Source: Sphaerodactylus townsendi (lineage: Eukaryota). Taken from it: 64,000 bases of DNA. The notes beneath the pieces are model-generated. The model saw only the letters and a list, made by a program, of their open reading frames with translations. It was not told the origin of the DNA and did no database searches. The position numbers and the translations under genes are program-made. The stretch lies in contig NC_059428.1 in assembly GCF_021028975.2 (NCBI RefSeq), positions 558,001-622,000 of the forward strand, in the 5' to 3' direction. This document shows positions 7,133 to 57,000 of the stretch, piece by piece (within the stretch, counting starts at the first letter, position 1; the number at the start of each line of letters is the position of its first letter).

Positions 7133-10100
7133 TCACACTGCAGCTGTCCCCTCCCCTCCTGTCTCCTCAGAGAAGCCCACCCTGGGCAATTGGACTTCCA
7201 GACCCTGTTCAGAGCCCTCCCCAGCCTCGCCTGCCCTGGCCTCCCCCTTGGGAGTCATTTCCAGCACGCTGTGGGAGCCAGGGCTCAGGGCCACCTTTGG
7301 AAACTTAAACTTGGGGGACTTCTCCCCCTTGAGGGCGGAGTCACCTCTTTTCAGGGAGGCCATCTGTGTTTGGGCAGCGGAAGAAACCACAGCTCCAGGG
7401 GCAGCCTCCCCGTTTCTCTTCCTGAAGCCCAAGAAAGCGATTTGGGGGGGCTTGAACTTGAGAGCTGCAGAAGGGCCCAGGCCTCCTGAGGCAGCCCTCA
7501 CCAGCTTGAGGCTGAGCTCAGAGTCGTTCTCAGCCAGCATGGAGGGGGAAGGGAGCTCCACCCGGGGCAGCTGCATCTTGCCCTGCTTGCCCTTGCCGCC
7601 TTCAGCCCCATTTTGCAGCGCAGTCTTGGCTCTCTCCCCGCCGAACTGGGCGCCGCCCTCTCCCTTGGAAAAGCCCAGATTGGGCAGCTTCTGTTTGGAG
7701 GCTCCGCTCTCCAGCTCCCCGTTGACGACCAGCAAGCCCATTTTCAGCTTGGAGAGGGACAGCCCCAGCCTGAGCCTGCCCCCGACCCCTTTGCCCTCCG
7801 TCCCCTCGTCTCCCTCCAGCAGCCCAGAAGAGCCTTCCACCCCACTCTCTTTGGACCTTCCCAGCCCAAAAGGGGACTTCTTGGCCTTGGCTTCTGCTTC
7901 ATGCCCCAAAATACTTTCCCCTGCTTTGGGCATGGACAACCCAAACTTTGGGATCTTTACTTTGTACTTCTTCCCTGCCTCCACATCAGAGGCCTCCCCT
8001 TTGCACCCTGGGATCTTCCAGCCGTCGCTGCTGGCACGGACTCTCCTGCTGGCCACTTCCAGCTGGGCCTGCGCCACTTCATATTCCACGCGAGCCTTCA
8101 GAGTTGGTGCTGAGAGCTCTAGGCCAGGCACTCGGAAGATGGCTCTCTTTCCATCCAGGTGTTGGGGAAGGGTTGCTTCCCGGCCTCCTCTGGGGATCGA
8201 TACCCCCAGTGCTGGGATCCTGATTTTGGGCATCTTCAACCTGCCCTCAAACCCCTCAGTTTCCAGACCTTCAGCACATGCCAGTTTCCCTGCTTCTACT
8301 TTGGCCTCCCTCTTGCCACCTTGATCCACAGAGAAACCCAGCGCAATCTGGGGCATTTTGACCGAGACGTCTTCCTCCTTGGGAGAAGGGCAGAGGGGCT
8401 GCCTGTCCACCCTGGGCTCCGTGCTCACCTTGGAGATGCTCAGGGAAGGGATCTTCAGCTTGAACTTGCTGTCAGGGTCGAATGCACCCACCTCCTCCAC
8501 GACCGCGGCTTCTCCTTCTGCCTTGCAAAGGCCAAGGCCACTCAGTGGACAGGGCAGGGTGCCCTGATCTCCCTTGCCCCTGGCTTCTGCACCCAACTTT
8601 GCAGCGCTGCCTCCGAGCTGGGGGACATTCAGCTCGAGCTGTGGCAGGTCCACTTTCACCTCCCCCTCCCCCTCTGCATCCAGGCTTCTAAGTCTGGGCA
8701 GTCTAATTGCTGGGCTGCTCAGCTTGGCTGTGGGCAGCATCTTGCCCCCTTCCGGGCTCCCCTCAAGCTCTTGTTCTGGGGCCCCAGCTTTTGGGGTGGA
8801 GAATACAGGTAGCTCCACAGAAGGCATTCTGAACACCACCTCGGGCCCTACCACAACCCGCTCTCCCTCACTTCTGAACAGCTCCACATCTGGTAGTTGT
8901 GCTTTGGCCACCTGCATCTTGGAGGCTCCAGCAGTGCCTGGCTCTCCTCCGCTTTTGAGCAGCTGCACGTTTGCTGCCCCCCCTCTCACAGACAGTGGCA
9001 GCTCCCACTGGGGCAACTTGCTGCTCACCTCTGCCTCGGGGACTCCACTTGGCCCAGGGGCCTCTCCCCCAGCCGGGGGCAGGCTCAGGTGCAGCTCCAC
9101 TTTGGGCGCGGAGACATCCAGAGATGGTGCTTTGGGCATCCTCCGTTCTCTGGCGTCTGCCTCGGAAGCCTCCGCTCCTCGTCTCCCTGGAGTCAGCTCT
9201 GCTTGGGTTGTAGCGCCAGGCATGGCGATCTCCAGAGAGGGCACATGGACCTTGGGGCTCTCTGACCCCACCAGCAGGGCCTTGTCTGCTTGGGTCTCGG
9301 GGAGGCTGATCTTGGGTAGCTCTACCTGAGGAACTGGAACGTGGCCCAGGTCTGCCTTGGCAGACGGCAGCTTCAGCTTGGCCATCCTGGCCAGGGGGCC
9401 GCGTGGCTTCTCCTTGGGAGCCCCAGCCGCCTTCTTGGCCTTGCTCTTCATTCCTAAACCCACCTCCTCTAGGTCTCTGTGGACCATGCTGAACAATGGC
9501 AGTTTGAACCTGTGCATCTTGGCTTGGGCCTCCTCCTCCTCCTCCTCAGGGGCCTTAGCCCTCCGCCCTCCTGTCAGGGCTCCTCTGCTTCTGCTCAGTT
9601 TGGCCTCCCCCCTCTCAAGCCCCACGTCGCCCTCCTGACCCTTACCCCCAAATGTGGGCAGTGAGAGCTTTGGTATATTTTGCTTGATGTCTGGGAGTTC
9701 TATGCTGAGTTCAGGCAAAGTGCCGGTGCCCTCTTCAACAGGGGACTCTGCCTTCTCTGTGGCCAGGCTGATGCCCACCTTGGGCAGAGCTATGGCAAGA
9801 CCCTGCCGTCTTCTCTCTGAAGGCTCCTCATCAGCTGCTGAGGTTGTCCCCCTTTCCCTGGGAGTTTTCCTTTCTCCCTCTAGGGCTGGTTTGGGGCCCT
9901 CTGCATCTGCCCCCCATTTGGATTTGGGGAAGGAGATCCCAAACTTTGGCATCTTCAACTTCAACCCTTTGTCTGTAGCATCAGGGCCTGCCACCTGTGT
10001 GCTCACTTTCCAGACCTTTGGGCCAGAAATGCCAAATTTGGAAAGAGCAAATTTGGGTGACTTTGGCTTGGTTCCTGTCTCAGGGGACTCACCCCTCTCT

Positions 10101-12105
10101 AGGGTCACCTCTGGGAACTTTATGGCTGAAACTCCCATGGAAGACAGCTTCCCCTCTCCACCCCTGGCCAAGCCTGCCGATTCTGGCTTCCCCTTGTGAA
10201 CCAAGCCAGCCTCTCCTGATTCCTCTTTGCTTACAGCGAGACCCACTTTAGGAAGTCTGGCAACGATTGCCTCCGCATCCAGCTCTGCAGCGGCCCCCCC
10301 ACCTGCCTGTTGTTCAGACTGGCCATTCCTGCACTGGGGGACACTGATCTCTACCTCGAAGTCTCTGCTCAGAGTCCCAAGCGGGGGCATTTTTAACTTA
10401 GCGTCATGGTCCCTGGATGTGTGATTGGACTCCGTGCCCTCGCTGTCAACCTTAGGCAAACTGAGCTCGATGCCAACTCTGGGCAAATCAAGTTCAAGGG
10501 CCGGCGCAGTGGTCAAAGGAAAACTCAGTCGGGCCACAGGGAGGGCTACCTCCACCTGTGGCCTGTCCACACAGAGGTCCAACTCTGGTTTCGGAACATG
10601 CCCCTTAGGAAACTGCACTTCCAGTGACTTCCCTGCTGGCAAGGACAGATCCAGTGTGGGGACACTGCCCTTCCCACCAGTATCACCTTTGGGCCATTTG
10701 GGTGCTTGTGGTGGGGAGGGTATTGCCTTGGTGGGGACGGTGCATTTTGGGAGCGACACTTGAGGGATCAGGAGTTCTACTCTGGGCCCTTCTGTAGCCT
10801 CTGTGACCTTCACCCCTGGGGCAGGGACTGCCAGCCCTGCCAAGGCTTTTGGGAGCTGCATGTTAATGACTTGGGGGGCAGAGATATCAAGGGATGGTAC
10901 CTTCAGGGCCAGATGCTTTGTCTTGCTGGCGACCTCTTTGCTCTCTGACACACACTCCATCAAAGAGACGCCTAATCCCAGGGCCTGGCTCTTGGCTTTT
11001 GCCTTTGGGCTTTCCAGTTTCCCCACAGAGAGCTCCACTTGGGGCATCCGACTCTCCCCCTCGTCCTCTCGGGGTCTGGAGCTCAGCCTGACTGGGGGCA
11101 CCTTGATCGAAATGTCTGGGATCTCAATTTTTGGCTTGGGGGCCTCAGCTGGTGCCTTCCCCCTGGGCAGAGGGATCTCTATGTCTACAGAAGGGAGATC
11201 CACACCCAGGGATGGCACTGTCCCCTTCTCTTCTAGCCCCTCAGCTTTGCCTCTTCCTTTTCTCAAGACAACATCAAGGGGGGCCAACTTTCTCTCCGTC
11301 TCTTCAGCAAAGACCCCCACCTTGGGGACTCTGACCTGGAAGCCTTCCCCTTTGAGGGCAACTTCTGGGGCAGCCCCCTCCAGTCTAGGGAGGCTGAGGG
11401 CCACCTCCAGCTTCGGGGCTGTCACTTCAGCTGCCAGGAGTTTCAGTGCAGCGAAGGCACCCTCTTCGGGGGCTTCCAGACCCACGGGGCTCCCCTTAGG
11501 CAGGGCCACCTCCACCTGGGGCAGCCCGAATGGCAGGACTTGGACTGCTGCAGCACCTCCATGGTCAGTACCACCAGCCTTGGGAGAGCGCTCTCCCACA
11601 GGCCCGACTTTTGGAGTGCCAGGGGAAGTCAGGGTCCACCTCTCTTGAGGCCTGGAGATCCCTTTCACTGCCGCCCAGCCTCTCTGGGCTTCTTTCTTTT
11701 GGAGAAGGGGGTGGTGAATGGGGAGGCCTTCCCCCTGGTGCCTCCTTGGGCAGCCTTGGGTGGGGCCACGTGGTGCTGCCCAGCAGCCCCCACTGCCCTT
11801 GCTGCCAGGGCTTCTTTGACCTTCAGCCTGGGGAACTTCAGCTTGCGGCCCTTGGTCTCCAGAGAGGAAAGGAGAGGGGAGAATTCTGGGCTGTGCCCGG
11901 CCACCGCCACCCCCCCTCTGGTGCTCCTGGCCTTGTGCAGCTTGGAGAACATGGGCAAGCAGAACTCCACATCCACCGGAGCCACGTCCTCTGACTTTAC
12001 GCCAATGGGCTCTGGTCCGCCACGGCGCTCTGCCTCCCCGAGGGCCTTGCCCAAGCTTGTCCTGGCCTTCTTGGACTTCTTCAGAGAGGTCAAGCTGCGG
12101 ATGCT
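7133..12105 (-). CDS. PRX: Periaxin giant last coding exon (L-periaxin); at least one apparent frameshift at ~11630-11800
   Basis: Acceptor cccccag|AGC. Reads SIRSLTSLKKSKK..DVAPVDVEFCLPMFSKL (basic NLS region), then a 1511-codon ORF rich in xLPKV-type motifs, ending EKSPKFKFPKVALSP..LPRVGFSE..AAV* as in human PRX. Confidence 0.93.
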
Positions 12106-13194
12106 CTGGGGGAAAAAGAAAGGTGCTAGATGAATCTCAGCCCCCAGCCAGCCAGCCAGCCAGCCAGCCCACGCGCCCAAGAGAAAGCTGGGAGCAGGCG
12201 GGTCCTGTAGGCAGCTACAGCAACAAAAATTCCTCTAGAACTTCAGTCCTAAGTGGCTCCAATAAAAGAGGTGCTCTGAGCTACCTGGTGCTCTGCCCAC
12301 TACGGGTACCTGCCTAGCACCAATGTGCTTTCCCTGCCCAGGTCAGGAGTGGCTACCGCCAGGCCTGTCCCGTCTGACCAGTGGAGGCCACTCGCTGGAG
12401 AGACCGCTGCTGGGACAGGAGGGACCGCTGCTAATGTATGTGGACTGGATGAAAGAAGCTCGAGTCAATGAAGAAATATGGGAGAAGAGGCTACAGAGAA
12501 TGAACTTACTGCTGTTTGTGTGACAAAACTATGAGGAAGATGAAATGGGGGGGGGAGGGAGAAAAGGGGGAAAACGTATCGTGTGAAAATGTATGAAGAA
12601 GGAAATGACTATAAACTGTAAAATTCAAATGATACAATAAAAAAATTTTTTAGAAGGAGAGAGCACTGCTGTGTGCCATTGTGGAGACACAAGTACTGTG
12701 TCCAGGTCCCTGCAGGGAGGGAAATGGGGTGGGCCAGAGTGGGGGCTGTTTTGGATTGATTGAGTGGCAGCCTAGGGGGCCCACCTGGGGGGGGCACATT
12801 CACAGCCCTGGTCAGCTGTGGAGTCCCTTGAGGACATTGGGTTGGTGACTTTTTCTTATCTAATTGACCTCGCAGGGATGTTGTGGGAGCAAAATGAAAG
12901 AAGGGAAGAGCCACTTATGCCTCTGTGAGCTCCTTCAGACAAAGGGCTGAGGGAAAATGCAGTAGATAAACAGCTCAGACTCAACCCTGCCCTTCTAGCC
13001 CAGGCAACTGCCTCCAATAGTTGACAAACAGACATCTCTGAGAGGCCAAAAAGGAGGGGTCAAAGGCCCAACAGCTGGCATTTGGAGTAGACGGCCTACA
13101 AATATGGAGCTATTCTAGCTAAAAGCCACTGCTGCTCTGCTTTTAAAATGTGCATCTGTGAGAAAATCCTCAGGAGGACTTGCACACATCAATC

Positions 13195-23349: not shown

Positions 23350-24590
23350 CATAAGAACATAAGAACAAGCCAGCTGGATCAGACCAAAGTCCATCTAGTC
23401 CAGCTCTCTGCTACTCGCAGTGGCCCACCAGGTGCCTTTGGGAGCTCACATGTAGGATGTGAAAGCAATGGCCTTCTGCGGATGTTGCTCCCGAGCACCT
23501 GGTCTGCTCAGGCATTTGCAATCTCAGATCAAGGAGGATCAAGATTGGTAGCCATAAATCGACATCTCCTCCATAAATCTGTCCAAGCCCCTTTTAAAGC
23601 TATCCAGGTTAGTGGCCATCACCACCTCCTGTGGCAGCATATTCCAAACACCAATCACACGTTGCGTGAAGAAGTGTTTCCTTTTATTAGTCCTAATTCT
23701 TCCCCCCAGCATTTTCAACGAATTGCCCCTGGTTCTAGTATTGTGAGAAAGAGAGAAACATTTCTCTCTGTCAACATTTTCTACCCCATGCATAATTTTG
23801 TAGACTTCAATCATATCCCCCCTCAGCCGCCTCCTCTCCAAACTAAAGAGTCCCAAACGCTGCAGCCTCTCCTCATAGGGAAGGTGCTCCAGTCCCTCAA
23901 TCATCCTTGTTGCCCTTCTCTGCACCTTTTCTTGTTGCCCACCTCTGCACCTCAATATCCTTTTTGAGATGCGGCGACCAGAACTGGACACAGTACTCCA
24001 AGTGCGGTCGCACCACTGCTTTATATAAGGGCATGACAATCTTTGCAGTTTTATTCTCAATTCCTTTTCTAATGATCCCCAGCATAGAGTTTGCCTTTTT
24101 TACAGCTGCCATGCATTGAGTTGACATTCCCATGGAACTATCAACTAAGACGCCCAAATCCCTTTCCTGGTCTGTGAGTGATAGCACTGACCCCTGTAGC
24201 GTGTATGTGAAGTTTGGATTTTTTGCCCCTATGTGCATCACTTTACATTTTAACATTAGACACATTTGCCATTTCTGAGCCCACTCACCTAATTTATCAA
24301 GGTCCGCTTGGAGCTCTTCGCAATCCTTTGTGGTTCTCACCACCCTACATAATTTGGAATCATCTGCAAACTTGGCCACCACACTACCCACCCCTACTTC
24401 CAGGTCATTTATGAATAGGTTAAAGAGCACTGGTCCCAAAACGGATCCTTGGGGGATACCACTCCCTACATCTCTCCATTGTGAGAACTTCCCATTTATA
24501 CCCACCCTTTGTTTCCTGTTCCTCAACCAGTTTTTAATCCATAGGAGGACTTCCCCTCTTATTCCTTCATTGCTCAGTTTTCTCAACAGG
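23350..24590 (-). mobile_element. 5'-truncated CR1 LINE (RT C-terminal part and 3' tail)
   Basis: [52 protein letters not shown]; (CATAAGAA)n tail at 23350. Confidence 0.93.
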
Positions 24591-31358: not shown

Positions 31359-32072
31359 TCACAACCCCTCAGTTCCCACAAGCACATCGAGGAAGTAGTC
31401 CAAGTCAGCAAAGTCCTGCCTGCCCACCTCGGAGTTTGCTACCAGAGAGCAGAGCCTCTCCTTGCTGCACAGGGAGCCATGAGATCACTGCATCATAGAT
31501 GGAGAGATGTTAGATGTCCTCAGAGAAGATACCATCCAGGCTCTCCTGTAGCAGGGTCTGCCCAGGGCCCATGAGCTCCAGAGGGGCCAGGCATGGCGGG
31601 GCCGTCTGTCCAGATTCTGGGCTCGGCTTGCCAAGCAGGCTATCTGCAGCCTGGACCATGGCTGGCCACAGGGGGTCACCGAAACCCTTCCCGCTGGTCT
31701 TGGGAGTCCTTCCAAGGATGGAGAAGACAGAGAGGCACATCCCATGCTGGAGGCTTGCAGGGAGCTGATCCACAGGACTGAGTGAGGGTGGCAGCACAGG
31801 AGGCTCCCAGCAAGGCCCCTGGCCAGGGCCAGGCAGAGAACCGCTGTCATCCAGCCACGCCTCCACACACAGCCCTTGCTGCCGCACGGAGAGAGAGGCC
31901 AGCTCCATCTCATCTTGCACGCGTCTGAGTGTGTTGGCCACCAGGACCAGGTGTCGAAGGTCGGGCTCCCCTCGCTGCAGGCTCCAGTGCTGAAGAGGGG
32001 GCTGGAGGGCACCGCAGGGGCAGGGTCCATCTCCTCCTCAGTTCGCTTACGCTTCTGGCCTTTGCCCAGCAT
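31359..32072 (-). CDS. SERTAD1: SERTA domain-containing protein 1, single coding exon, disrupted by several frameshifts in this assembly
   Basis: MLGKGQKRKR..; EPDLRHLVLVANTLRRVQ; LDGIFSEDI; C-terminus DLDYFLDVLVGTEGL*; acceptor ccccag|aaagATG; synteny. Confidence 0.88.
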
Positions 32073-32399
32073 CTTTCTGGGGGGAGGAAGAGGACGGGCA
32101 ATATAGTCAGAATGCCCCCAGACATGTGACTGCTGCAGAATGGCACAGCTGGGGACAGGGAGCAATAGCTTGCTGCCTCTCTGTGCCTGGGAAACATCAC
32201 AACACACAACTGGCACTCAGAAGCTCAGTTCACAAAATGCATCCTCCCCCCCCCCCCCCCACACACACCATCTGGCTGGGGATCTCATTCCATAGTTGGG
32301 ATGCTGCTATGTTTGTGGGTTTATGGGTCATTCACCCCCCACCCCATCAAGCAAGGGAAGGGTTTCCTGCAGGTTGCCTAGCAACTGGGGGGGGGGGGG

Positions 32400-37563: not shown

Positions 37564-38469
37564 CAAAGGATTGCAAAGAGCTCCAAGTGGACCTTGATAA
37601 ATTAGGTGAGTGGGCTCAGAAATGGCAAATGCAGTTCAATGTAGCAAATTGTAAATTAATTCACATAGGGGTAAAAAATCCAAACTTCACATACAAGCTA
37701 TCAGTCACAGACCAGGAAAGGGATTTGGGCGTCTTAGTTGATAGTTCCATGGGAATGTCAACTCAATGCATGGCAGCTGAGCAAAAGGCAAACTCTATGC
37801 TGGGGATGATTAGGAAAGGAATTGAGAATAAAACTGCAAAGATTGTCATGCCTTCATATAAAGCAGTGGTGCGACGGCACTTGGAGTACTGTGTTCAGTT
37901 CTGGTTGCCACATCTCAAAAAGGATATCGAAGAGATAGAAAAAATGCAGAGAAGGGCAACAGCAATGAAGGAATAAGAGGAGAAGTCCTCCTATGGATTA
38001 AAAACTGGTGGTGATGGCCACTAACCTGGATAGCTTTAAAAGAAGCTTGGACAGATTTATGGAGAAGTTGATCTCTGGCTACCAATCTTGATCCTCCTTG
38101 ATCTGAGATTGCAAATGCCTTAGCAGACCAGGTGCTCGGGAGCAGCAGCAGCAGCAGCAGCAGGCCATTGCTTTCACCTCCTGCATGTGAGCGCCCAAAG
38201 GCACCTGGTGGGCCATGGCGAGTAGCAGAGTGCTGGACTAGATGGACTCTGGTCTGATCCAGCAGGCTAGTTCTTATGTTCCACTGCCATCTCACAGCAC
38301 CTGCTGCAGTTGGGCGGTTGGCTGCCAGCTGACTTGGGGCATTTTCAAACTGAATGGAAATTTGTATGAACCCCCCCACTCTGGTGTTTGTGAGATGGCA
38401 GGAAAGCAAAGGTATGCATATCAATGGAAGAGGAAACTTGTGACTGGACCCCATCAGGTAGCTGGAAGG

Positions 38470-42599: not shown

Positions 42600-42731
42600 C
42601 TGCGATGTGGGGAGGCATCACGTAGACACAGTCCAGCCCGGACTCTTTCAGGATCTGCTGCATCCGGATGTGATCCTCAGTCAGTGGCCGCAACTTGGCA
42701 GGAACCTTCTCCAAATCCCACATCAGGAATG
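42600..42731 (-). CDS. BLVRB: BLVRB exon 4
   Basis: FLMWDLEKVPAKLRPLTEDHIRMQQILKESGLDCVYVMPPHIA; AG/GT boundaries, phase 1-1. Confidence 0.93.
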
Positions 42732-43120
42732 CTGGGTCAGAAGTACATGAAATCCGGTTACTAACCCTAACCCTCCCACTGCACCCTGTCATGGGCCAGG
42801 CAGCCTGTCCCCCTGCACTGGGCCTCTGACTGTGGTGGCCTCCCCATCCACGTGAGACACATGAAGAAGAGCGCAAGCATAGCCACAGGGAAGTGTGACA
42901 GAGGCAGTGCGCTGTGAGGAAAGAGCCCCTGCTATGCTTGGATCTTAGAGAGCTGAATGCAAATCCTATTACTTGGGAGTTGTCAGATCTCTCACCCATA
43001 AAGCGCTTCAAAATCCTGCACCAGGTCTAAAGGGCTGTGGTGTGCAGCAAGGTACCAATCCGAAAGAAATGTGGCTGGCAGGACCCCCCCCCCCCCCCAA
43101 AGAGGTGAGGAGAGGCTCAC

Positions 43121-43210
43121 CTGAGAGACAAACCACGACCTTGCGGATCCCGTGGGCCTTCATGGCTTCCACCACATTCCGAGTGCCTTCAGACATCATG
43201 GTGGTGGGAC
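43121..43210 (-). CDS. BLVRB: BLVRB exon 3
   Basis: [29 protein letters not shown]; 90 bp; |gtgagc donor. Confidence 0.95.
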
Positions 43211-43297
43211 CTGATGAGCAAGGGGTGGAAGGGGGACAGTCAGGAAATCTTGGGGGGAAGGAAAGTGGGGTGCTGGGGGAGGTTCTGCCTCTCGTAC

Positions 43298-43461
43298 TCA
43301 GGTCATTGCGGGTGCCCAGAATGACAATCACAGCCTCTTGGCCCTTCACGGTCCGGTTGACGTCCTCAGGATTCAGCACGTCTCCCACAAGGACGTGGGC
43401 TGGCTGCCAGAGCTCTGCAGAGGCCGGGCTGGGTTCACTTCCAGCACCGTCACCTGGCAGC
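43298..43461 (-). CDS. BLVRB: BLVRB exon 2 (164 bp, net 1-nt deficit near its 5' part)
   Basis: [40 protein letters not shown]; ttccag| acceptor and A|gtacga donor. Confidence 0.92.
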
Positions 43462-43674
43462 CTGGAAGGAGAGAGGCAGTTGAGTGCAGCTCAGATCTGG
43501 GAGACTCAGATTAGGAATCCCCACTCAGCCATGGAGGGATTGCTGAGTGACTGGGCTGGTCAAACACTCTTATCCACACCTACATCTCTGGCTACGTATG
43601 TGGATGGAATGGGGGGAAAGGAGGATGAAGGAAGTCACTTTGGTCCCTGTTGGAGGGAAAGAGTAACTTAGGGT

Positions 43675-46600
43675 AAGAACATAAGAACAAGCCAGCTGGA
43701 TCAGACCAGAGTCCATCTAGTCCAGCTCTCTGCTACTCGCAGTGGCCCACCAGGTGCCTTTGGGAGCTCACATGCAGGAGGTGAAAGCAATGGCCTTCTG
43801 CTGCTCCTGCTCCTGAGCACCTGGTCTGCTCAGGTATTTGCGATCTCAGATCAAGCAGGATCAAGATTGGTAGCCAGAGATCGACTTCTCCTCCATAAAT
43901 CTGTCCAAGCCCCTTTTAAAGCTATCCACATTAGCGCCCATCACCACCTCCTGTGGCAGCATATTCCAAACACCAATCACCGTTAGTGAAGTGTTTCCTT
44001 TTATTAGTCCTAATTGGTAAAGGAGTCCAATGGTGTTGATGAGGAGGGCAACTTATTACAGCCTTGACTACATTCCACAGCCCGGGCGATGGGCCAGCTT
44101 CTCTGGCCCGAGGAGACCTTATCTCACGAGGAGATGAGACCTCCGTTCCATGGGAATCGGAGGGGGATGGGATGGACGGAGTTACCGGCTGTTTCTGGTG
44201 GGAAGTCTTATTCCTGCCACTAAATTTGAGCTTTCTAAGATGTCTGAATAAACGGTCTTTTACACCAAAGAGCCTTTTATTTCTGCTTCTATGGAATTCC
44301 TTACATTGTGGCAGGAATCCTTAATTCATCTATATTCCTAGTGCAGTGGACCTCTGGTGCCTTTTCGGCATGGGTTGGATGTTTCTGGGGAAGGTGCGGT
44401 AGGCCCCAAAGAGGGCTCCGACCTTTCCCCTCTGGATCTGGAGGAACCCGGCGGGAGAGCAGGGTCGCTGAGTGACTCTTTCCCGTCCCTCGTATCCTTG
44501 CGAGTCTTCCCTTTACTCCGTTTAGGAGGGACGTGAAAGACGACCATAGGGACTTACATGAGTGGTTTGAAGCTGTCTCTATGGATCGGCCTGTGGATCG
44601 AATCTCTACCGTTTAGGTGTAGGATTACAAACCTCCAGATGCAACCTGTCATGGAGAGCGGGCCTGACCACCTTTCATACGGCAACCCAGGAGTCCATTG
44701 AACCCGATTCCTGGACTCAGATTTTGGTGATGCTCCCAAAGAACCACCGTGGCACAGCACTGGGGCCCATCCGAGAACCACGGTGACACTGGGACTATAC
44801 CAGGATTGGGAGGGTATCCATTACCCGTCTTCGATCGGGACCCCCTGATCCCGAGCAGCGGCTGCACTGGCATGCCCGTGGAGCCACCGGTGGGCGCGAT
44901 GCCTGGCGTCCAGGCGGCGAGGAGTCGAGAAAGCCTGCCCTCCCAGCGGATCTGTTCCCTCTCCCCGCCAGAAGAGAGCTGGGATGAGGGAGTGGGCGTG
45001 CAAGTAGATGCCCAAGAAGCATGGGCGGCGCCAGCTATGGGAAGAGGGAGCGGAACAGCTGCAACAAGAGCGTGAAAACCTGCAGAGAGACGGGGAGCAG
45101 CAGCAAAGAAGTCCAACTCAGGTGGACCCGTGCCAAAGAGGCGCTCAAGCGACGTATAGCCCAGAATCTATCAGTCCCATGATAAAGTCCTGGAACACTC
45201 CAAACTGAACTTACAGCGTCAACACGAAAGTGTTCAGGCCCGCTAAGTACACAAAGTGAACTTACTGCAGCTGTTCAACGGAGACGAACTGGCTAAATTG
45301 GAGCGGGAGAAAGCAGCTTTGCATCGCACCAGGATGCATTGACTGGCATGAGGAGAGAGAGCTGGCTGCCTTGGAGAGGGAACTGAAGAAGCAATGGGGC
45401 CAGACCAGGAGCCAGCCCAAAGTTGGAGTCTGCACGCTGTCACAGGTACAGCCGGGCGCCAGAGGGGCGACGCTGCTGGGCCCAGCCACCTTTCCCCCAA
45501 GGACCGGCTCCCCACCGGGAACACCAGCTGCACACCGGCGCTGATACCCTCCACCCGATTCTCCAGCCCCTCACAAGAATCAGCTGCCTCAACCCGCTCA
45601 ACTCATGCGCCCAACCGCCGCCCCTGCGTCGCCTTCAAGGGCGTCAGGAGAGGGTGCTACTACGGAGCCTCTCCAATACCTGCCCGCTTCGGGATGGGAC
45701 CGGGCTTCCAAACTTCCCTAGCTTCATCTTTGCAACTTCATGCTCCACATGGAGGGACTATGATGATTTATACCGGGTCTGAGCGAGCTTAAAATACGGG
45801 GACATCGGCTCAGTCCTGGATGGGGGCAGCAGCCGACTGGTTTGTGACTCTTTTGAACCTTGCAAGATGAAGATTTCTCCGCCACCGGTACCCGTGAGAT
45901 TCACCTCCAAGCCTTGAGGGCTCGGGCTTCCAAGATCCAGGTGCGGAAAATGAAGCTTATCCGCGACCATCAAAACTATTCAACAAGAGCAACCGGCTTC
46001 GCTTGCAGAATTTGCCCGTTCGGAATTTAGCTATGGCGGGCGGCTGCTTTCGACTCCCTCCTGAGTAGGCCTGGAGCGCATGAAATGCGTTCAATACTTC
46101 TCGGATGCTGTCGGCCCGGCAAGCTGGCGTGGAAACGGTGTTGTTTTAATTCGGGTCCCCCTCGCACTCATTAAGCTGATTGAATTGCATTACCAGGATC
46201 CCAAAGTGGCTGCCTCGCGGCAGTATGCGTACGCTCATGCCGGGAGGGCCGCCATGCTCGTGACCGGCCGCCACTGCGTCCGCAAACTCAAGCTGCTTCC
46301 AGCCAGCCGCCCTAATGGAGATCTCACCTCGGATACTGGCTTTTCGTCGCCGACACTGGGATTGTGTCTTTACTGCGGGAGGTCCCAGTCATCTAGCCGC
46401 CTAACTGCCCAAAAAGCAGAAGCTAGCAACCACTCCGACGCTAGCGCACTCCATCTGCCAAGCCATCACAAGAAATCAGGAGGGTCACTCCTTAACGGGC
46501 TCGGTCTAAAGAAACAGTCATCGAGGCGACCCGAGGAGGAGGGGAAGCAGCTGTTTGCCTTTCTTCAGCCCCCAATGGACATGGGTTCGACTCCAGGCAG

Positions 46601-49600
46601 CGGTGGAGTGAAGGCAAAGCGCTCACATTACAATCCAAGCCAGCTTCTGGCCAACCCCGCTAAGCATGCTCGTGGTATAGCCTCAGCTCCCTTGTGGGAT
46701 TCTGGCTGCTCCCATTTGTTTAATGCGGCCCCAGGTGGCGGGAGGAGCTAGGGTCTAGACTAAGTCCCCTGGCTAAAGCTCATATACCTTTCACTCCAAA
46801 TGGGCTGACAGGTCCTTCGGGAGAAGCTGAAAGGACGGCCCAGTTCAAAGCATAACCCGAACTGTTCTCCTCGCTGCGCCGACCATTGGGAGAAAAAATT
46901 AGTTTTATTCTGGCGCCAGTGGCTACAAACACTCCATAGTTCTGGGTGCATGCCATGGTTTGTTGTTACATGAACCAAAAATTCCTTTGGAAAGAAAGGA
47001 TCTTGGAATTCACTCGACCACTCCCTCAAGTGGGAACTTACATGAATTGTAAGAGCTTCGGGACTTCTCCTCTGGACACACACACCCCTTAGCTTCATCA
47101 GCGGCCATTGCTTCCCCGATTCTACCGGCATCCCACCCGGTCGCACTCAAGATCTAGCCAGAGTATTTCCTCAGAAGTGAGTTAGAATCGCGATCAGTTG
47201 CCACCCCATAGAGACACTGACTGCAAAATGCGTAATACAGCCAGAGCAGCGAACTGCCCAAAGGTAGAACTCTACCGTATGAGTCCCAATGAGGGAGAAG
47301 GAACTGGCTGATTTCTTAGACAAGAACCTCGAAACAAAGGTTCATACGTATGGGCGGGCTACCAAACACACACATGCTGCTCCTGTATTGTTTTGTAAAA
47401 AAAAAAGAAAGATGGGTCTTTACGGCTCTGCACAGATTACCGAGGTCTCAATGCAGTCTCCCTGTCCAATAAATACCCTTTGCCTTTAATCAAGGACCTT
47501 TTAGATGCATTGGGCAAGGGACGCATCTTTACTAAGTTGGACTTGAGAGAAGCTTACTACAGGGTCAGAATTGCTGAAGGCTATGAACACTTGACTGCAT
47601 TTAAGACGAAGTTTGGACAGTTTGAATACTTAATAATGCCATTCGGGTTGGTGGGGATTTGGGCTTTTATGGCCCACCTTATCAACGAAGTTCTCCATGA
47701 TTTATTGTACAAGGGTAGTGGTGTACTTAGATGATGCCGTTTTAATTTATTCACAAACCATGGAGGAGCATGAAGCATTGGTTCGGGAAGTATTGAAACG
47801 CTTGCTCAACAACTCCCTCTTTGCCAAACTTTCCAAGTGCTGTTTCCACCAAACCTCTATTGACTATTTGGGTTGCGAATCTCGCCGAGGCCTACAAATG
47901 GATCCCTGCTAAGATTGATCGGTCACTCAATGGTCGGCCCCCCACCAGCGAAAAGAACTCCAATCTTTTTTTCTAGGTTTTGCTAATTTCTATCGTGACT
48001 TTATACTGAATTCGCTGAACTGACTCTCCCTCTCACAGACCTCTTACAGCACTAAGGGTAAAGATCCACTGTCCGCCAAGCCGAGGCCCCCTTTCCTGGT
48101 CTGAAGAATGTCCAGACAGCCTTTCAGCATTTAAAGTCTGCTTTTACCACCGAACCTATCCTAAAGCACCCTGACCCAGATCTCCCGCTTGTGGTTTCCG
48201 CGTGGATGCCTCGGACAAAGCGGCAGGGCAGCCCTGTTGCAGAGAAATAAAGATATTAGGTTGGTTCCGTGTGCTTATTTATCAAAGAAATTCTCGATTG
48301 CTGAACTCAACTGGACTGTGGGGATAAAGAGACTGCGGCCATTAAAGTAGCACTCTCCACTTGGCCACTGGCTGGAGGGGCTAAACACTTTCCAGGTTTG
48401 GTGGGATCACAAGAACTTGGTCGCCTCTCTCACCCCCCCCCCTCAAGATGTTCGCCGTTGGGCCGATTTCTTTTCGTTTCGCTCACGGTCCATTTTTCCC
48501 CGGAAAAACCAATAAACTGGCTGATCGCTCTCGCTACCGAGGGTGGAGCCAGCTTACGGAGACATTCAGCACTGTTCTCTCCCCCCCTCAATAGGGGCTG
48601 GCTGTCACCCGATCTCAGACATCCACTCGAAATTATCTCCGCCCATTCCCAGCCTGGTCTCTCCTCTGGGGAACTTGAGGAGGCGGGCGACGCCTCGGGC
48701 GGAGGAAGGCTACTCCCAATTCGTTTGGAGAATAGGCGTTTGGTAGCAGAGTTGTTGGTGCGTGCCTCCTCCCTCCGCCAAAGCAGGTTCTCCGAAGGCC
48801 TGCCATGATGCCCGCCGGCTGGACATTTTGGCTTTCTAAAACTCTGCATTTGGCCGCCGTCAATTCTGGTGGCCAGCGATGCTGGGACGTTGAGACGATA
48901 TTAAAGGTTGCTCTGTTTGTGCAGAAGCCAAGACCGTCTCGGAAAGCCCCATGGGTTGTTGAAACCCCTCTCCGTGGCCTCCCGCCTGAGGAAGTCATCT
49001 CCATGGATTTTATTACAGATTTGCCAGAAAGTCATGGCAACACCCGGTCTTGTGGGTGGTGGTGGACTTATTTTCTAAACAAGCCCATTTTATTCCATGT
49101 GCTTCCCATCCCTCGGCGCTCCTAAGTTGGTTTCGTCTGTTCATTCAGCATATTTACCGTCACCTCCGCCCGTTAAAGGTGGTCTCCGGATCGCAGCTAA
49201 TTCATTTCAAAGTTCTGGAAAACTTTTCTAGGGTTGTTAGGGGCACGCCCGTGATTTACCTTCTACCACGTTTAAAAGTGACGTGAGTCGGAGAGAACAG
49301 ACAAGAACCCTAGAAACGATATTTGCGTTGTTACACCAACTACCACCAAGACAATTAGTGCGAGCTCATTCCGCTTGCGAATGCGCCTATAACAATGCGG
49401 TTCATAGCAGTATGAAAAAAACCCCGCCGAAATTGTGTCTGGTGGCTCCTTCACGTTGCCGCAACTACTCGCGGAAACGTGGATCCTCCAGAGTTTCAAC
49501 AATGGATTTCATCTCTGGCGAGGGGTGGAAATCGTCCAGACTGCCTTACAACAGACTAAAGACTCCCAAAAGCTGCAAGCGGATAAGCACCTTTCAGATT

Positions 49601-52600
49601 CCCTCTAGCGTGTGAAGCCTGGGTCGTATTTGTCTACCAAAAAATCTCATAGAGACGACGTGCATAGGTTTTCTAAAGCTAGGCAAAAGTCATTGGGACC
49701 TTTTCAGATTACTAAAGTGATTAATGATGTCACCAGCCCGATTGGATTTGCCTGCTCTCTTAGTAACATTCATCCTGTCTTCCATTCCAGTTTACTCAAA
49801 GAGGAGGCTCCTCGTCATTCCTGGATGCACCAAGACGCCTGGAGAGCGGTCTCCCACCGACTCATTATTGATGGCCACAAGCATTGCGTAAATTGACGCT
49901 TTATCCCACTCTAAAGCTTTTAATCACCATAGCGAACGCTTACAATGGTATTTAGTCTCTTGGGTGATTATTCCTCTGGAGTATAATCAATGGGTTTATT
50001 CCCGAAAATTATTGGCAGCCCCCCACCCTTATTTCTGCTTTCCAATCGGCAAATTTCCTTTCCGCAGACAAACCTGGGGGAGAGGGGTCTTCTTTAAGGG
50101 AGGCAGAGTGTAAAGGGAGTCAATGGTGTTGATGAGAGGGGCAGCCGCCTGGCCTTGACTACATTCCACAGCCCGGGCGATGGGCCAGCTTCTCTGGGCG
50201 GGAGACCTTATCTCCCGCGTGAGGGAGAGATGAGACCTCCGTCGCTCCCATGGGAATCGGGAGGGGATGGGATGAATGGGAAGCTATAACCTGTGTTTCC
50301 TGGCGGGAGATCTTTATTTATACTCACTGGCGCTACTTCTACTTGAGCTTTTCTAAGATGTCTGAATAAACGGTCTTTTTACACCAAAGAGCATAGCCTT
50401 ATGCTTCTGCTTCTAGTAGAATTCCTTACACTAATTCTTTCCCCCTCGAGGCATTTTCTATAATGAATGCCCCTGGTTCTAGATATTGTGAGAAAGAGAG
50501 AAACATTTCTCTCTGTCAAGCATTTTTCTACCCCATGCATAATCTTGCCTATACACTTCAATCATATCCCCCTCAGAGCCTCTCCTCTCAGAGCTAAAAA
50601 AAGGAGTCCCAGGCTGCTGCAGCCTTCTCCTCATAAGGAAGGTGCTCCAGTCCCTCAATCATCCTTGTTGCCCTTTCTCTGCACTTTTTTTTCTAACTTC
50701 CTCTTTCAATATCCTTTTTTGAGATCGCGGCAACCAGAACTGGAACACAATTGCTCCAAGTCGCGGGTCGCAATGCACTGCTTTTATATATAGGGCATGA
50801 CAATCTTTGCAGTTTTATTTCTCAATTCCTTTCCTAATCATCCCTGTAGCATAGAGCTTCTTGCCTTTTCACAGCTGCCATGCATTGAGTTGACATTCCC
50901 ATGGAACTATCAACTAAGGGCCTTCAAATCCCTTTCCTGGTCTGTGACTGATAGCACTGACCCTTGGCAGCTTGTATGTGAAGTTTGGGATTTTTTGCCC
51001 CTATGTGCATCACTTTACATTTTGCTACATTGGAACTGCGATTTGCCATTTCTGAGCCCACTCACCTAATTCTTATCAAGGTCTGCTTGAAGCTCGCCGG
51101 CAATCCTTTGTGGTTCTCACCACACTGCATAATTGGTATCATCTGCAAAGCTTGGCCACCTTCACTACCCACCCCTACTTCCAGGTCATTTATGAATAGG
51201 TTAAAGAGCACTGGTCCCAAAACGGATCCTTGGGGGACACCACTCCCTACATCTCTCCACTTTCCATTTATACCCACCCTTTGTTTCCTGTTCCTCAACC
51301 AGTTTTTAATCCATAGGACGACTTCTCCTCTTATTCCTTCATTGCTGAGTTTTCTGAACAGTCTCTGGTGAGGAACTTGGTCAGAAGCCGTTTGGAAATC
51401 CGAGTAGACAATGTCCACTGGTTCCCCACTTATCCACATGCCTGTTTACACCGTCAAAGAACTCTAGTAAGTTTGTAAGACAGGACTTGCCTCTGCAAAA
51501 GCCATGCTGACACTTCTCAGCAGGTCTTGCTTTTCTACATGTTTTATAATTTTATCTTTTAATGATAGATTCTACTAATTTACCAGGAACAGATGTCAAA
51601 CTGACTGGCCTGTAATTTCCCGGGTCCCCCCTAGATCCTTTCTTAAAAATTGGTGTGACATTGGCCATCTTCCAGTCTTCAGGGATAGAGCCTGATTTCA
51701 GGGATAAGTTGCATATTAAAGTGAGAAGGTCAGCAATTTCATGCTTGAGCTCTTTAAGAACTCTTGGATGAATGCAATCTGGGCCAGGGGGTTTGGTAGC
51801 ATTTAGTTTATCAATGGCTGCCAGAACTTCTTCCTTGTCTACCACTGTCTCTTCGCTAGTTCCTTGGATTCGCCTCCCAAGAAGCATGGTTCAGGTGCAG
51901 GAATTTTCCTCACCTCCGCTTGGGTGAAGACAGATGCAAAGAATTCATTCAGCTTCTCTGCAATCTCCCTGTCATCGTTTAGCACACCCTTTGCTCCTTT
52001 GTCATCTAACAGGCCTACCGCTTCCCTAGCTGGCTTCCTACTTTTGATGTACTTGAAGAACTGTTTGTTGCTGGTCTTGATGTTCGCAGCCATGCGTTCC
52101 TCATAATCCTTTTTTGCCTCCCTTACAGCTAACTTGCTTCTCTTTTGCCACCATTTGTGTTCCCTCTCATATTCTTCATCAGTCAAACTGGACTTCCATT
52201 TTCTAAAAGATATTTTCTTTTTTCCGATAATTTCCTCAACCTCTTTTGTTAACCATGGTGGCTTTCTTTTGGACTGGGTGCTGCCTTTCCTAACCTGCGG
52301 AACACATTCCAGTTGAGCTTTTAAGACTGTGTTTTTAAATAACCTCCAAGCATCTTGGACAGTTTTGACTCTCTTGATTTTCCCTTTCAGCTTCCTGCAC
52401 ACTATCCCCCTCATCTTTGAGAAATTTCCCTTTCCGAAGGCGAATGTAACTACATTAGTAGTTGTCACTTGTTCGCATGCAGAGATACTGAATCTGACAG
52501 CATTGTGGTCGCTGTTCCCTATCGGCTCAACAACACTGACTTCCTGCACCAGGTCCTGGGTCCCACATAGAATTAGATCTAGGATCACCTCTCCCCTGGT

Positions 52601-53758
52601 TGGTTCCACAACCATCTGCTCTAAGCCACAGTCATTTAGCATATCCAGGAATGCTCTCTCCTTACTATGACCTGAACATGCATTTTTCCAGTTTATATGG
52701 GGATAGTTAAAATCTTGATGATCTCTAGGGGAAAGATGACACTGTAGAAGAATGTTTACCCCAGGATGAAATCAAGCTATTGAGAATTGGTATACTGAGG
52801 AAGATACCTTCGAAAACGCATTCAGACACGTGGTGCGATTCTATGCAAGATTCTCATTTTTCCATGTACCATCTATGAATGGACTCAAGGCACAGGAGAT
52901 ATCAGCTCTGTTGTGAAGTTCAATTTGGAACATACAAAACAATGGAGATATAAAATTTCTGTTGGAATTGAACAGTGTGGTCTCATATGGACTCAAGGTT
53001 CCACAACCATCTGCTCTAAGCCACAGTCATTTAGCATATCCAGGAATGCTCTCTCCTTACTATGACCTGAACATGCATTTTTCCAGTTTATATATGGGGA
53101 TAGTTAAAATCACCCATTACCACTACATTTTTGCTTTTGTTGGCCTCTCTAATTTCTTTTTCCATCTCAGAATCCTCTTGTGCACTTTGGTCAGGGGGAC
53201 GATAATATATTCCTAATATTAAACTGTCCTTCACACCTGGTATTGATATCCACAGTGATTCTGTAGGGGAATCAGCTCCCCTTTCATTGTCTATTTTATG
53301 TGACACTATGCTCTCTTTGACATAGAGGGCAACCCCGTCCACAATACGCCCTGTCCTATCCTTCCTGTAGAGCCTGTAACCTGGCATAACAGCATCCCAC
53401 TGGTTCTCCACCATGTAATATATATGCCCACTATATCAAAGTCCTCCTTCAAAACTCTGTACTCCAGCTCCCCCATTTTAGGTCGAAGGCTTCTACTATT
53501 AGCATAGAGACACCTATATACCCTGTCTCTGTCCTTAACCTGGGATTTATGTGCTTTACCCTCAAGTCTTTTGTAGACACTATCCCTTGTCACATGCACA
53601 TTGCTATGTTCCTTGCTTGTATGTGGTTGATTTAGAAAAACCTCCTCCTCTGTCTGCATCCCCATAGATACTGTATTCCGAACCGAAGTCACCTCTGCTC
53701 CTGTCGGCTTTCCCCCAGGGCTCAGTTTAAAAGCTGTTCGCCACCTTTTTAATGTTGA
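43675..53758 (-). mobile_element. CR1 LINE in BLVRB intron 1 (3' part 43675-44014; remainder 50431-53758 with RT, endonuclease and ORF1 end), split by the Gypsy insertion
   Basis: Same family as the 23350 and 34720 copies; [44 protein letters not shown]. Confidence 0.92.
44015..50430 (+). mobile_element. Full-length Ty3/Gypsy chromovirus-type LTR retrotransposon (Tf1/sushi group), frameshift-riddled
   Basis: LTRs 44015-44305 and 50109-50430 (TG..CA); TSD CTAAT; PPT 50096-50108; gag knuckle GLCLYCG ~46360; protease DSGCS ~46700; [26 protein letters not shown]; integrase SMDFITDLP/VVVDLFSK; HPVFHSSLLK; chromodomain-like YLVSW..NQWV ~49950-50000. Confidence 0.95.
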
Positions 53759-53844
53759 GCGCCAGAAGGGTATATTAAATTTGATATATAAATGAATAAA
53801 TATAAAGAAATACATAGAAAAAGCTATATGGGGAGCCTTGATCC

Positions 53845-54038
53845 GGTTGGCCCAGACTAGCCCAGTCTCCATGACATTCTGGTTGCTAAGCAGATCCCAG
53901 TTAGTACTTGGATGGGAGACCACTAAGGAAGTCCCGGGTTGCTATGCAGAGACAGACAACGGCAAACCACCCCTGAATGGTTCTTGCCTTGAAAACCCCA
54001 CTACGAGTTGGCCATAAGTCAGCTGTGACTTGACAGAA
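53845..54038 (+). mobile_element. 5S rRNA-headed SINE with a Sauria/RTE-like tail (5S-Sauria-like)
   Basis: GCTAAGCAG..GTTAGTACTTGGATGGGAGACC (5S box A/IE/C) followed by GGCAAACCAC..CTTGCCTTGAAAACCC..GCCATAAGTC. Confidence 0.75.
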
Positions 54039-54229
54039 ACTCCCCCACCCCCCCGCAAAATTGGAGAGGATTCACTGTAGAAACAACCTGTGGGGTTAAA
54101 GGAGAGTAAGTTTGCACATCAGATTCTCTATTATGTCGACAGTGAGGCTGAGGCAGTCCTGAGCCCCTTCTGAAAAGAGCAGTGGCACATAGTGGAAACA
54201 TACCAAGAACTGAGCAAAGCAACACATGA

Positions 54230-54385
54230 GTCCGACTCCGATGCTCACCCAGATATGGCACAGGAAGGATCTTTCTCAGCCTTGGCCAGCTGAGGTGCAC
54301 TTACTGGAGGCTGCTGGAATTGAACCCTGGGACTTTGGGTGTGCAAAGCAGGTACTTACCCACTGAGGCCGGATCTCCCTTCTGA
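54230..54385 (-). mobile_element. Diverged Squam2-like tRNA SINE
   Basis: Reverse complement reads CTCAGTGG..TGCTTTGCACAC..GGGTTCAATTCC. Confidence 0.55.
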
Positions 54386-54849
54386 GCTGTGGTAGGCTTT
54401 TCAGCCAGGCCTGCATTTTGAAACACCTGGAAGGGATCTGGTCTCCCGGAAGGACTCTTTGCATTTCACCAACAGGCTTCTTTGAGGAGTTTTGCCTTTT
54501 GAAGTGAAATCGGAGTCTCTGGGCAGGCTTCCTGGCCCCGCCAGAGCCCAGGAATTGATTGGTGAACCAGAAAACAACCCTGAAACATGCCTGGCATTTT
54601 TGGGCAAGGGCCAGTCGTGTGGCTACCTTGAGAGATTCCTAGGGTGGAGATCCAGCCCTGGCACCTGCCCCACGGTCACCTCCTGAGTTGTGGCGACCCA
54701 CAGTGGGGCATCTCAGGAGGACAGCAGGGAGAGCCTGCGTGTGTGTGCTCTCCTGTGGTTTGGGCCTGGGGTCTGGCAGCGCTGCTGAAGAGGGAGCGGG
54801 GGCTGAGCCAAGCAGGGCTCTCCTGCTTCTGCGCCCTTCTCGGCATTGC

Positions 54850-57000
54850 GCCCGCTCCCCCACCCCCTTGCCGGGCCAGATAGGGCGGCAGCACAGGCGG
54901 CGGCGGCAGTTCCAGACAGATAACGCCGCACGGGTTTATCAGCGCCCGCCGCGCCTCCGGGCAGCCGCGGCAGACCCCCCCCCCTTACCGGGTCGGCTCG
55001 AGAGAGCGGCGAGGAGCGGGAGGGGTGTGGGGGGCCGGGGGCGGCGTCCAGCGGGGAGGGCAGCCAGCCCGGACAGGGACTCCCGGTTTAAGTCCCGGCC
55101 CGACCCCTCTTGGGCTGCCGGGCAGGCAGGAAGCAGAGTCAGCCCCTTAGGATCACTCCGCAGGCCACCCACGGACCCCACTCCTACGGCGCGGGCGTGG
55201 AAGGGGGAAAAGGTGAATGTGTCGTCGTCCCCCCCCCCCCCGAGCTGCCGTCAGAAAGGGCCTCGCGAGGAACCGAAGGGCCCTTTGGCCACTGGGGGCG
55301 GGGGGGGCCTTCGTGCCCCGGCCTCCCTCTTACCCGCCTCGAGGGCCTGCGCCAGGGTGGCCGAGCCGGTCATGCCGGTGGCCCCGAAGAGGGCGATGCG
55401 CTTGCAGGAGCCCGCCATGCCGCCTGCCCTTCTCGCCTCCGAGACTCCTCGGCCTGGCCCGCCGCGCTCGCCCAGCGCCGTCTTCCGCCCGGAGCTCCTC
55501 CCGCGGAGGCTGGTTCGGGGGAGGCACCGGGGCGGGCGCCTGGGCTGGGGCGAAGGCTCCGCCGGGCCAGGGCCACGCGCCCTGCCCTACCCCGCCGCTG
55601 CGGGCATGGGAGCGAGGGAAGAGCGTCGTCCGGCCCACGGGCCCCAGGCGCCCCGCCCGCCCGCCCGCCCTGGGGTCTGGCAAGGGTACCGGCCAGGAGG
55701 GCCTTGCGGGGGGTACGTGGCCTTCTCTCCCCATCCGCAAAGCGGCCTGACCCGGGGGGCCGCGAACCCGACGCCAGGGCGCGCCTTTCCCCGGGGCAGA
55801 GCTGGCGTGGACAGTGGCAAGCAAGGAGCCCCCGCCCCGGCGAAAGGCGGCCGAGGGGAGGGGGACGGAGGCGCCTTCGCCTGCCCAAGACTTTCCTTCT
55901 GGCTTCTGCCCGCACGATCGCCTCTCCAGAGCCGGGGCCGCCGGGGCTGCTGGCCGGCCGGCCGTGCGCTGCGTGTGTGCCGCAGGGGAAGCGCGCGCGT
56001 CCGCCCGCCTGACCGCCAGCCGGGACCCTCCCTCGCCCCGCGCCGTGCAGCCCCGCTCGCCCGCCCGCCCGCCCGCCCGCCCGCCGAGGCCCGGCTGCTG
56101 CGCCCTCCCCCCCCCCCAAGACGCTCCCCGCCTGCGGGGGCTGGGAGGGACGGAGCGGGGCGACCGGATTGGCTGCCGGCGCCGGACGGCGCGGATGCCG
56201 CTGGCCGAGCGGGGCTGCTGGCCGAGGCCGGGCCCGGGCGCGGCTTTTCTGGGGGAGCTGGGGTGAGTCTGCAGTGCGAAGCCCCGGCATGCCGCGCTGC
56301 GGGTGGGGCCCGTCTGGGACCGCGGGAGGGGGGGAGGGCGGGGGGCGCCTTGGCGCAGGGCCGGGCCCGGAGGGCGGCCAGGTGACAGCGCGGCTCGGGC
56401 CTCGCCCGCCCGCCAGCCAGCCGGGGGCTTCTTGTGCGGCGGCCGTGGGGAGCGGAGGGCCGAGATGGGGCCCCGCTGGCTCCTCGGAGGGAGGGCGGGA
56501 GGCCCAGAAGGCCCCTGCCCGGCCGCCCTTCGCTCACTGCCCGGCTGGCCGAACGGCGGAGCCGAAGGGAAGGTCTGCAGGACCCGCCCGGCGGGAAGGA
56601 GCTCCGGCTGATCGACGCTGCCGCCTCTCGGCCCGTGAAGTGCCGGCGTCGCCGTTTCAGGGGACGCGGATGCTGCTGAGCTTCCGAGGGGGCGCATGAA
56701 CGCCGCCCACGGGCAGCGGCCCCCGAATCTCTATGGGGCTGCGGAACCTGCAGCTGTGGGACGCTCCTGGCGCAGTGGCTAGCCTGGGGTTCCGGGCCGG
56801 GGGTCCGGCCGGCCGGTCCTTAGAGCACCGGGTGGGGGAGGAGGGGTCTGATGGCGGCCAGAAGGAGCAGACCCCGTTCCCCTGGGCTCCTGGGGCCGGG
56901 CAGCCTCCCCTCCTCCAGGCAGCAGCCAGGCCTCGCCAGCAGGCCCCTCCGGCTCCTTGGAACCGCACATCACGACTTATTCCTGGCCGATGATGGTGAG
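54850..57000. promoter_or_regulatory. CpG island; divergent BLVRB/SPTBN4 promoter; candidate SPTBN4 non-coding exon ending at 56262 (GG|GTGAGT)
   Basis: CpG-dense; ATTGG box at ~56168; head-to-head arrangement as in human. Confidence 0.7.
55334..55418 (-). CDS. BLVRB: BLVRB exon 1
   Basis: MAGSCKRIALFGATGMTGSATLAQALEAG|gtaaga; Rossmann GxxGxxG motif; missed by the ORF track. Confidence 0.93.

Follow-up and report, generated by a model that had tools for sequence, protein, structure and literature searches.

The family of the Ty3/Gypsy element located at positions 44015-50430 of the window (the whole 64-kb stretch of DNA analysed) likely primes reverse transcription with its own RNA, in the manner of Tf1, as read from its sequence. 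The predicted primer-binding site (PBS) just past the 5' LTR was the exact reverse complement of an 11-mer within that LTR, and dinucleotide shuffling of the 5' LTR gave at least 11 perfect pairs with the 20 nt past the LTR in 28 of 20,000 trials. Self-priming was the best reading of this arrangement because the pairing was beyond chance, was kept in other copies, was placed as in self-pairing relatives, and occurred in a chromovirus lineage with described self-priming. The first-pass annotation had reached the same interpretation, which was supported by the shuffles, the retention in copies, the placement in relatives, and the chromovirus lineage as described in passages of PMC10085805 and PMC6317226.

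Structure of the Element

The element was flanked by a 5-bp target duplication (Table 1), which was confirmed by an empty site: the flanks of the element matched a copy of the host repeat (23529-23847) with an overlap of 5 nt. The start of the 5' LTR was placed at 44015, a small correction to earlier boundaries. The insertion target was an interspersed repeat (43851-44014 and 50431-50600), with further matches in the window at 23529-23847 (uninterrupted) and 38007-38101, and is presumably CR1-associated. The host genes, all on the - strand, were taken from their translations to be HIPK4 (3162-4694), PRX (7133-12136), a SERTAD gene (approximately 31485-32216) and BLVRB (42621-55388); the element lay antisense within an intron of the gene taken, from exon peptides, to be BLVRB. 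No additional LTR copy was found elsewhere in the 64-kb window.

Table 1. Features of the element, with positions in the window, strand and supporting evidence.
Feature	Position	Strand	Evidence
Left target-site duplication, 5 bp	44010..44014	.	Repeated letter for letter at 50431-50435; paralogue of the host repeat without an insertion at 23529-23847
5' LTR (TG...CA)	44015..44305	+	77% identity to 50109-50430
Predicted self-primer, equal to the predicted first 11 nt of the transcript	44210..44220	+	Exact complement of the PBS; kept in other copies
AATAAA polyadenylation-type signal	44247..44252	+	Within a 30-nt block identical in both LTRs
U5 stretch, candidate flanking duplex with leader 44334-44346	44283..44297	+	Duplex fold; 16/300 shuffles reach the same
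2-nt spacer between LTR end and PBS	44306..44307	+	Same offset in 6/8 strict-match relatives
Primer-binding site (predicted)	44308..44318	+	11-bp complement; 44308-44317 free of substitutions among the rows listed, four runs
Leader stretch complementary to 44283-44297	44334..44346	+	Duplex fold; 16/300 shuffles
Disrupted gag core, start of a zinc knuckle and beginning of protease	45756..46819	+	Aligns with residues 3-325 of gecko protein P0001 (41% identity), with 9 frame breaks and 1 stop
Broken pol: RT, RNase H, integrase, SH3-like domain	47201..49800	+	Pfam RVT_1 and SH3_Tf2-1; tblastn; 72% identity to P0001
Chromodomain remnant	49861..50017	+	Best query 70 against a shuffle maximum of 37; 7/10 chromodomain queries above all 40 shuffles
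Polypurine tract, 12/13 purines	50096..50108	+	Read off the sequence
3' LTR, with TATAA at 50285 and without the 11-mer	50109..50430	+	LTR alignment
Right target-site duplication	50431..50435	.	Matches 44010-44014

Coding regions followed the Gypsy order (gag, protease start, RT, RNase H, integrase and SH3-like domain), with the region of the gag-pol junction, where a -1 frameshift would be expected in the Tf1/sushi group, interrupted by frame breaks. The first half of a CCHC knuckle was readable in gag near 46365, and the whole knuckle was present in P0001. Pfam gave no chromodomain match in three separate frames at the 3' part of the element, and 16 of 17 short frames had no Pfam match, the remaining one having an irrelevant weak match. 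The search of 43900-44800 against Rfam returned a single sub-threshold match. The recognisable gag core began approximately 1.4 kb past the PBS; the intervening stretch (44319-45755) had short, coiled-coil-like frames in which E, Q, L and R were abundant (e.g., 45260-45544). These frames had no match among the ten relatives tried or in Pfam; the stretch may be a long N-terminus of gag or an extra ORF.

Complementarity Between LTR and PBS

The 11-mer of the LTR, ATTCCTGCCAC, and its reverse complement were found exactly where the first-pass annotation had located them, with the terminal CA of the LTR ending at 44305 and the PBS beginning after a 2-nt gap. On the + strand, neither 11-mer occurred a second time in the window. 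The 11-bp helix could not be extended at either end, and its two arms were separated by a loop of 87 nt. A primer made by splicing was considered and rejected: it is not required because the complement is contiguous, and the three joints listed for contigs of other copies had no GT..AG ends.

The 3' LTR did not contain the 11-mer, and its longest complement to the PBS was 6 nt. It contained TATAA at 50285, 31-38 nt before the homologous primer position depending on gap placement. The 5' LTR had no TATAA, and its letters there differed. The TATAA that had been noted earlier in the 3' LTR, approximately 30 nt before the homologous position, was confirmed, but the argument built on it merges two different LTR copies, because the 11-mer is only in the 5' LTR and TATAA only in the 3' LTR. 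A44210 was in an initiator-like context, of which there were five within the 291-nt LTR.

Folding of the leader had been suggested in the first-pass annotation as a check, and the first 136 nt from 44210 gave one long hairpin closed by the 11-bp helix (z -4.35; 0/200 shuffles). The fold without both 11-nt arms was weaker (z -2.06; 5/200 shuffles). Predicted pair probabilities in four transcript lengths were 0.97-1.0 for pairs 3-11 and 0.43-0.88 for pairs 1-2. The 12-bp arm between U5 and leader was reached by 16/300 shuffles, and the pre-PBS arm of a Tf1-type pretzel was matched by 135/300 shuffles, so that neither flanking duplex was significant; noisy sequence may hide the pretzel.

When 573 codons of pol were aligned with P0001, the reading frame broke 20 times, approximately 11 times per kb, and 2 stops were present; a host exon in the window was open for 1,667 codons. 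That indels outnumber stops suggests an unpolished part of the assembly rather than plain decay. Frame breaks were not enriched at homopolymers, the pattern tested for as nanopore-type error (7/33 vs. a background of 0.17). Over 327 columns, the two LTRs (77% identity) differed in blocks separated by identical runs of 46 and 30 letters, with the target duplication intact, and each LTR diverged from other copies in different blocks. Both LTRs had T at 44104, where 64-100% of the depth in other copies read C. The separate divergent blocks and the shared T at 44104 fit a single insertion whose LTRs diverged afterwards or for technical reasons. The block differences are likely assembly noise, with gene conversion from another subfamily also conceivable as their source. 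The absence of the 11-mer from the 3' LTR is likewise likely to be assembly noise or a change after insertion, and not a family trait.

Phylogenetic Position

The unbroken piece of RT was 85% identical to a Sphaerodactylus protein, followed by proteins of Paroedura, Gekko and snakes; the nearest solved RT was that of Ty3. Many of the close gecko and snake relatives carry a chromodomain on record (PF00385). In an RT tree of 45 rows and 106 columns, which used 33 of 120 proteins and 11 of 79 metagenome loci, the element fell in a 21-row clade with gecko, snake and three unnamed proteins (support 100/99). The label of a squamate family applied by the first-pass annotation fits because the nearest RT relatives are from geckos, and then from snakes. 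The squamate clade was kept (support 100) in a tree of 34 rows and 405 columns with P0001 as stand-in for the element, and plant chromoviruses were separate; in this tree the squamate and the fish-containing clades were joined weakly (support 74).

The element is a broken copy of a chromodomain-bearing Ty3/Gypsy chromovirus. The trees contained no named sushi-ichi, Amn-ichi or Tf1 sequence. The element is very probably a V-clade member. Its family is probably unnamed.

Self-Pairing in Relatives and in Other Copies

A search with the alignment of squamate proteins retrieved 79 metagenome loci, 25 of them with a repeat pair around pol. Fourteen of the 25 were dropped, 10 because they ran to the contig end and four because they had no shared ACA end; the 11 relatives kept had 47-54% RT identity. 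A perfect complement of 10-13 bp to the own LTR was present at offset 1-2 in 8/11 relatives, six of the eight having the 2-nt offset of the element, and 3/11 failed this strict test. Since three of them share one PBS, the eight self-pairing relatives amount to six different sequences among nine families. As a control, the sequence after the 3' LTR of the relatives had a complement of only 4-7 nt in 9/10, and cross pairs between relatives reached at least 10 in 8/132, seven of these between close kin. With one G-U allowed, 10/11 relatives had at least 9 bp, but 16/132 cross pairs also reached at least 9, so the strict count of at least 10 alone was relied on. As 8/11 relatives self-pair, the 11 bp of the element at offset 2 match the geometry of its wider lineage, with unrelated letters. 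A TATA-like box was present 33-35 nt upstream of the primer in 7/11 relatives.

Among the self-pairing metagenome chromoviruses, L001, L017, L021, L022, L034 and L051 grouped with a Leucocoprinus protein, and L006 and L007 with a fish protein; L078 was also self-pairing. Comparison of L051 with L021 revealed a G-U wobble change. The protein scan found no relatives in viral contigs, and a 23-nt LTR motif had 0 matches in metagenome contigs. Two viral loci matching a 17-nt motif of LTR end and PBS were discarded as chance, with similarity stopping at 17-24 nt.

Other copies of the family were compared in contigs from four of nine listed public sequencing runs, which covered three organisms and three studies, and one of which may be the source of the window itself. 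The contig records matched per run were 4,578, 1,398, 471 and 31; with 4,578 contigs in one run, the family seems abundant. Positions 44308-44317 had no substitution among the rows listed in the four runs. T>A at 44318 accounted for 7% and 4% of the depth in two runs (organism A) and was absent from the other two. This PBS letter is opposite the first primer base, and without a matching change in the primer the first pair would be lost; the variant could point to a subfamily whose primer is altered or shorter. One-base losses among copies were found at 44319 (3-13%, three runs) and at 44321 (21-100%), with substitutions at 44321-44326. The conserved block of the PBS stopped where the 11-bp helix stopped.

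Among the 24 loose-end rows listed, five ended just 3' of the primer position, and three were long enough to read the primer. Two of the three readable rows had all 11 primer letters, and the third had 10 plus a last letter giving a G-U pair; the flanks of all three (organisms A and B) were unlike those of the window. One row of organism C had the PBS from TGG onward. Primer and PBS are conserved islands, since their letters were kept while the flanks diverged. Contigs of other copies were too short to link primer and PBS letters, and few aligned across 44210-44220. Covariation of the two 11-mers across copies, proposed earlier as a test, was not seen: primer and PBS letters were conserved, and the rows listed had no compensatory change.

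Discussion

Under self-priming, and by analogy with Tf1, transcription of the element would start at or beside A44210. The leading 11 nt of this transcript would pair back on the PBS approximately 100 nt downstream, the RNase H of the element would cut after nucleotide 11, and minus-strand DNA would be extended from the 3' end so released, through the 2-nt spacer and on into U5. Copying of the spacer would leave the usual 2 nt past CA, to be trimmed by integrase. For Tf1, passages of PMC7175516 describe the first 11 bases pairing with the PBS and the RNase H cut falling between bases 11 and 12.

A host tRNA might instead prime through its CCA end on the TGG that begins at 44309 in the PBS, with the 11-mer of the LTR as a side feature, e.g., part of a leader stem. 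The position of this TGG, at offset 3 past the LTR, agrees with tRNA priming, as does one loose-end row that strictly keeps just 10 letters ending in CCA, and tRNA matches as short as 8-10 nt are found in some LTR elements. Nevertheless, priming by tRNA is most unlikely. Reading the site as 18 tRNA positions puts T at 61 and 62, and C61 is nearly always present in tRNAs. Copies varied from about the 11th position of the PBS and not from the 18th, with substitutions and indels from 44318 on, and an 18-nt complement of a tRNA 3' end conserved across copies was not what the PBS presented, although a shorter, 10-nt match to a host tRNA is conceivable. Priming by tRNA also leaves unexplained the survival of the LTR 11-mer amid divergent flanks, and TGG was present at offsets 0-4 in 0/11 relatives. 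There was no tRNA gene in the 64-kb window. The same letters allow a dual route, with a self-primer whose end resembles that of a tRNA (CCA and one further letter) and a PBS that also accepts a host tRNA. CCA at predicted primer positions 8-10 and TGG in the PBS are in line with it, and so is the tRNA priming of the sister group of plant chromoviruses given in passages of PMC10085805. A dual route is just as improbable as a tRNA primer, given that by chance approximately 6% of sites (4/64) would have a particular trinucleotide at one of four offsets and that the 11th pair was kept or wobble-kept in all three readable rows; it names no host tRNA partner. It is very unlikely, too, that the self-primer mimics a tRNA end (CCA/TGG) at a site that still accepts tRNA or did so recently, which would make the family a living intermediate from tRNA priming to self-priming in a vertebrate chromovirus.

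The least probable reading is that the pairing has another role, as a stem of the 5' leader in packaging, dimerisation or the control of translation, or arose by chance, and that priming proceeds otherwise. It would accommodate the folding of 44210-44318 as a whole into one long hairpin and the absence of the motif from the 3' LTR, as well as the 44/3,179 real window positions with a match of at least 11 bp to the upstream 290 nt, a control that includes simple repeats. Against another role or chance, the helix was exactly at the 2-nt PBS offset, as in 6/8 relatives with different letters, the element had no other primer candidate, and the pairing letters were conserved in other organisms.

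The self-priming signature is real and its mechanism is known. Passages of PMC10085805 call self-priming a common trait in the Tf1/sushi group, and it is described in yeast and vertebrates in passages of PMC6317226 and PMC4600332. It is the expected state for the Tf1/sushi group, so the finding changes little. Like Tf1/Tf2 of Schizosaccharomyces pombe, with self-priming experimentally shown, and Tj1 of S. japonicus, the element had an 11-nt LTR stretch complementary to the PBS just past CA, the Ty3/Gypsy order, a C-terminal chromodomain and a 5-bp target duplication (cited portions of PMC7175516, PMC10085805 and PMC4600332). Unlike Tf1/Tf2/Tj1, its gag had the start of a CCHC knuckle, which the fission-yeast elements lack according to the cited portion of PMC10085805. 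It also differs from them in its vertebrate host, its 87-nt loop and the TGG in its PBS, and in being known from sequence alone.

Vertebrate V-clade elements were reported from fish, amphibians and sauropsids in passages of PMC2774666, PMC4131045 and PMC3670739, and for Amn-ichi Llorens et al. cite Piskurek et al. (Gene 441:111), a paper that by its title reportedly deals with a full-length Gypsy element with a chromodomain in the lizard Anolis carolinensis (excerpt of PMC2774666). Like the V-clade (sushi-ichi of Takifugu, Amn-ni, Amn-san and Amn-ichi), the present element is a chromodomain Gypsy element in a sauropsid; unlike the named V-clade elements, its family is gecko-type, with a short LTR (291-322 nt) and primer letters of its own. 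The element also resembles the vertebrate Tf1/sushi elements, with self-primers described in a passage of PMC6317226 after Butler et al. (2001). It shares with the Sushi LTR model the AATAAA near the LTR's 3' end and the CNTNACA end, and differs from it in an LTR start that diverges at the fourth letter (cited portion of PMC3601003). Gecko and snake Gypsy proteins in NCBI (Sphaerodactylus townsendi LOC125424948; 'PEG10-like' proteins of Crotalus and Pantherophis) formed one clade with the element (100/99); these relatives are known as gene models only, and were compared by protein.

No description of the priming of this family, or of any reptile element, was found in the literature searched; supplementary element lists may hold the family. 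If self-priming is true, the signature would be extended to a high-copy gecko-type family, and would reach the branch of reptiles nearest to the lost chromoviruses of mammals from which PEG10 and RTL1 arose (passages of PMC3670739). In the portions of the literature examined, experimental proof of self-priming is cited for yeast Tf1 only. With its 87-nt loop and apparent abundance, the family offers a compact object for mapping a vertebrate self-primer.

Two minor features were also present in the element. A T-rich stretch (50088-50095) directly 5' of the polypurine tract resembled the T-box of other LTR elements described in a passage of PMC10085805. A 17-nt imperfect inverted repeat, probably due to chance, paired the protease region (46913-46929) with the stretch of the 3' LTR standing in the place of the 11-mer (50317-50333).
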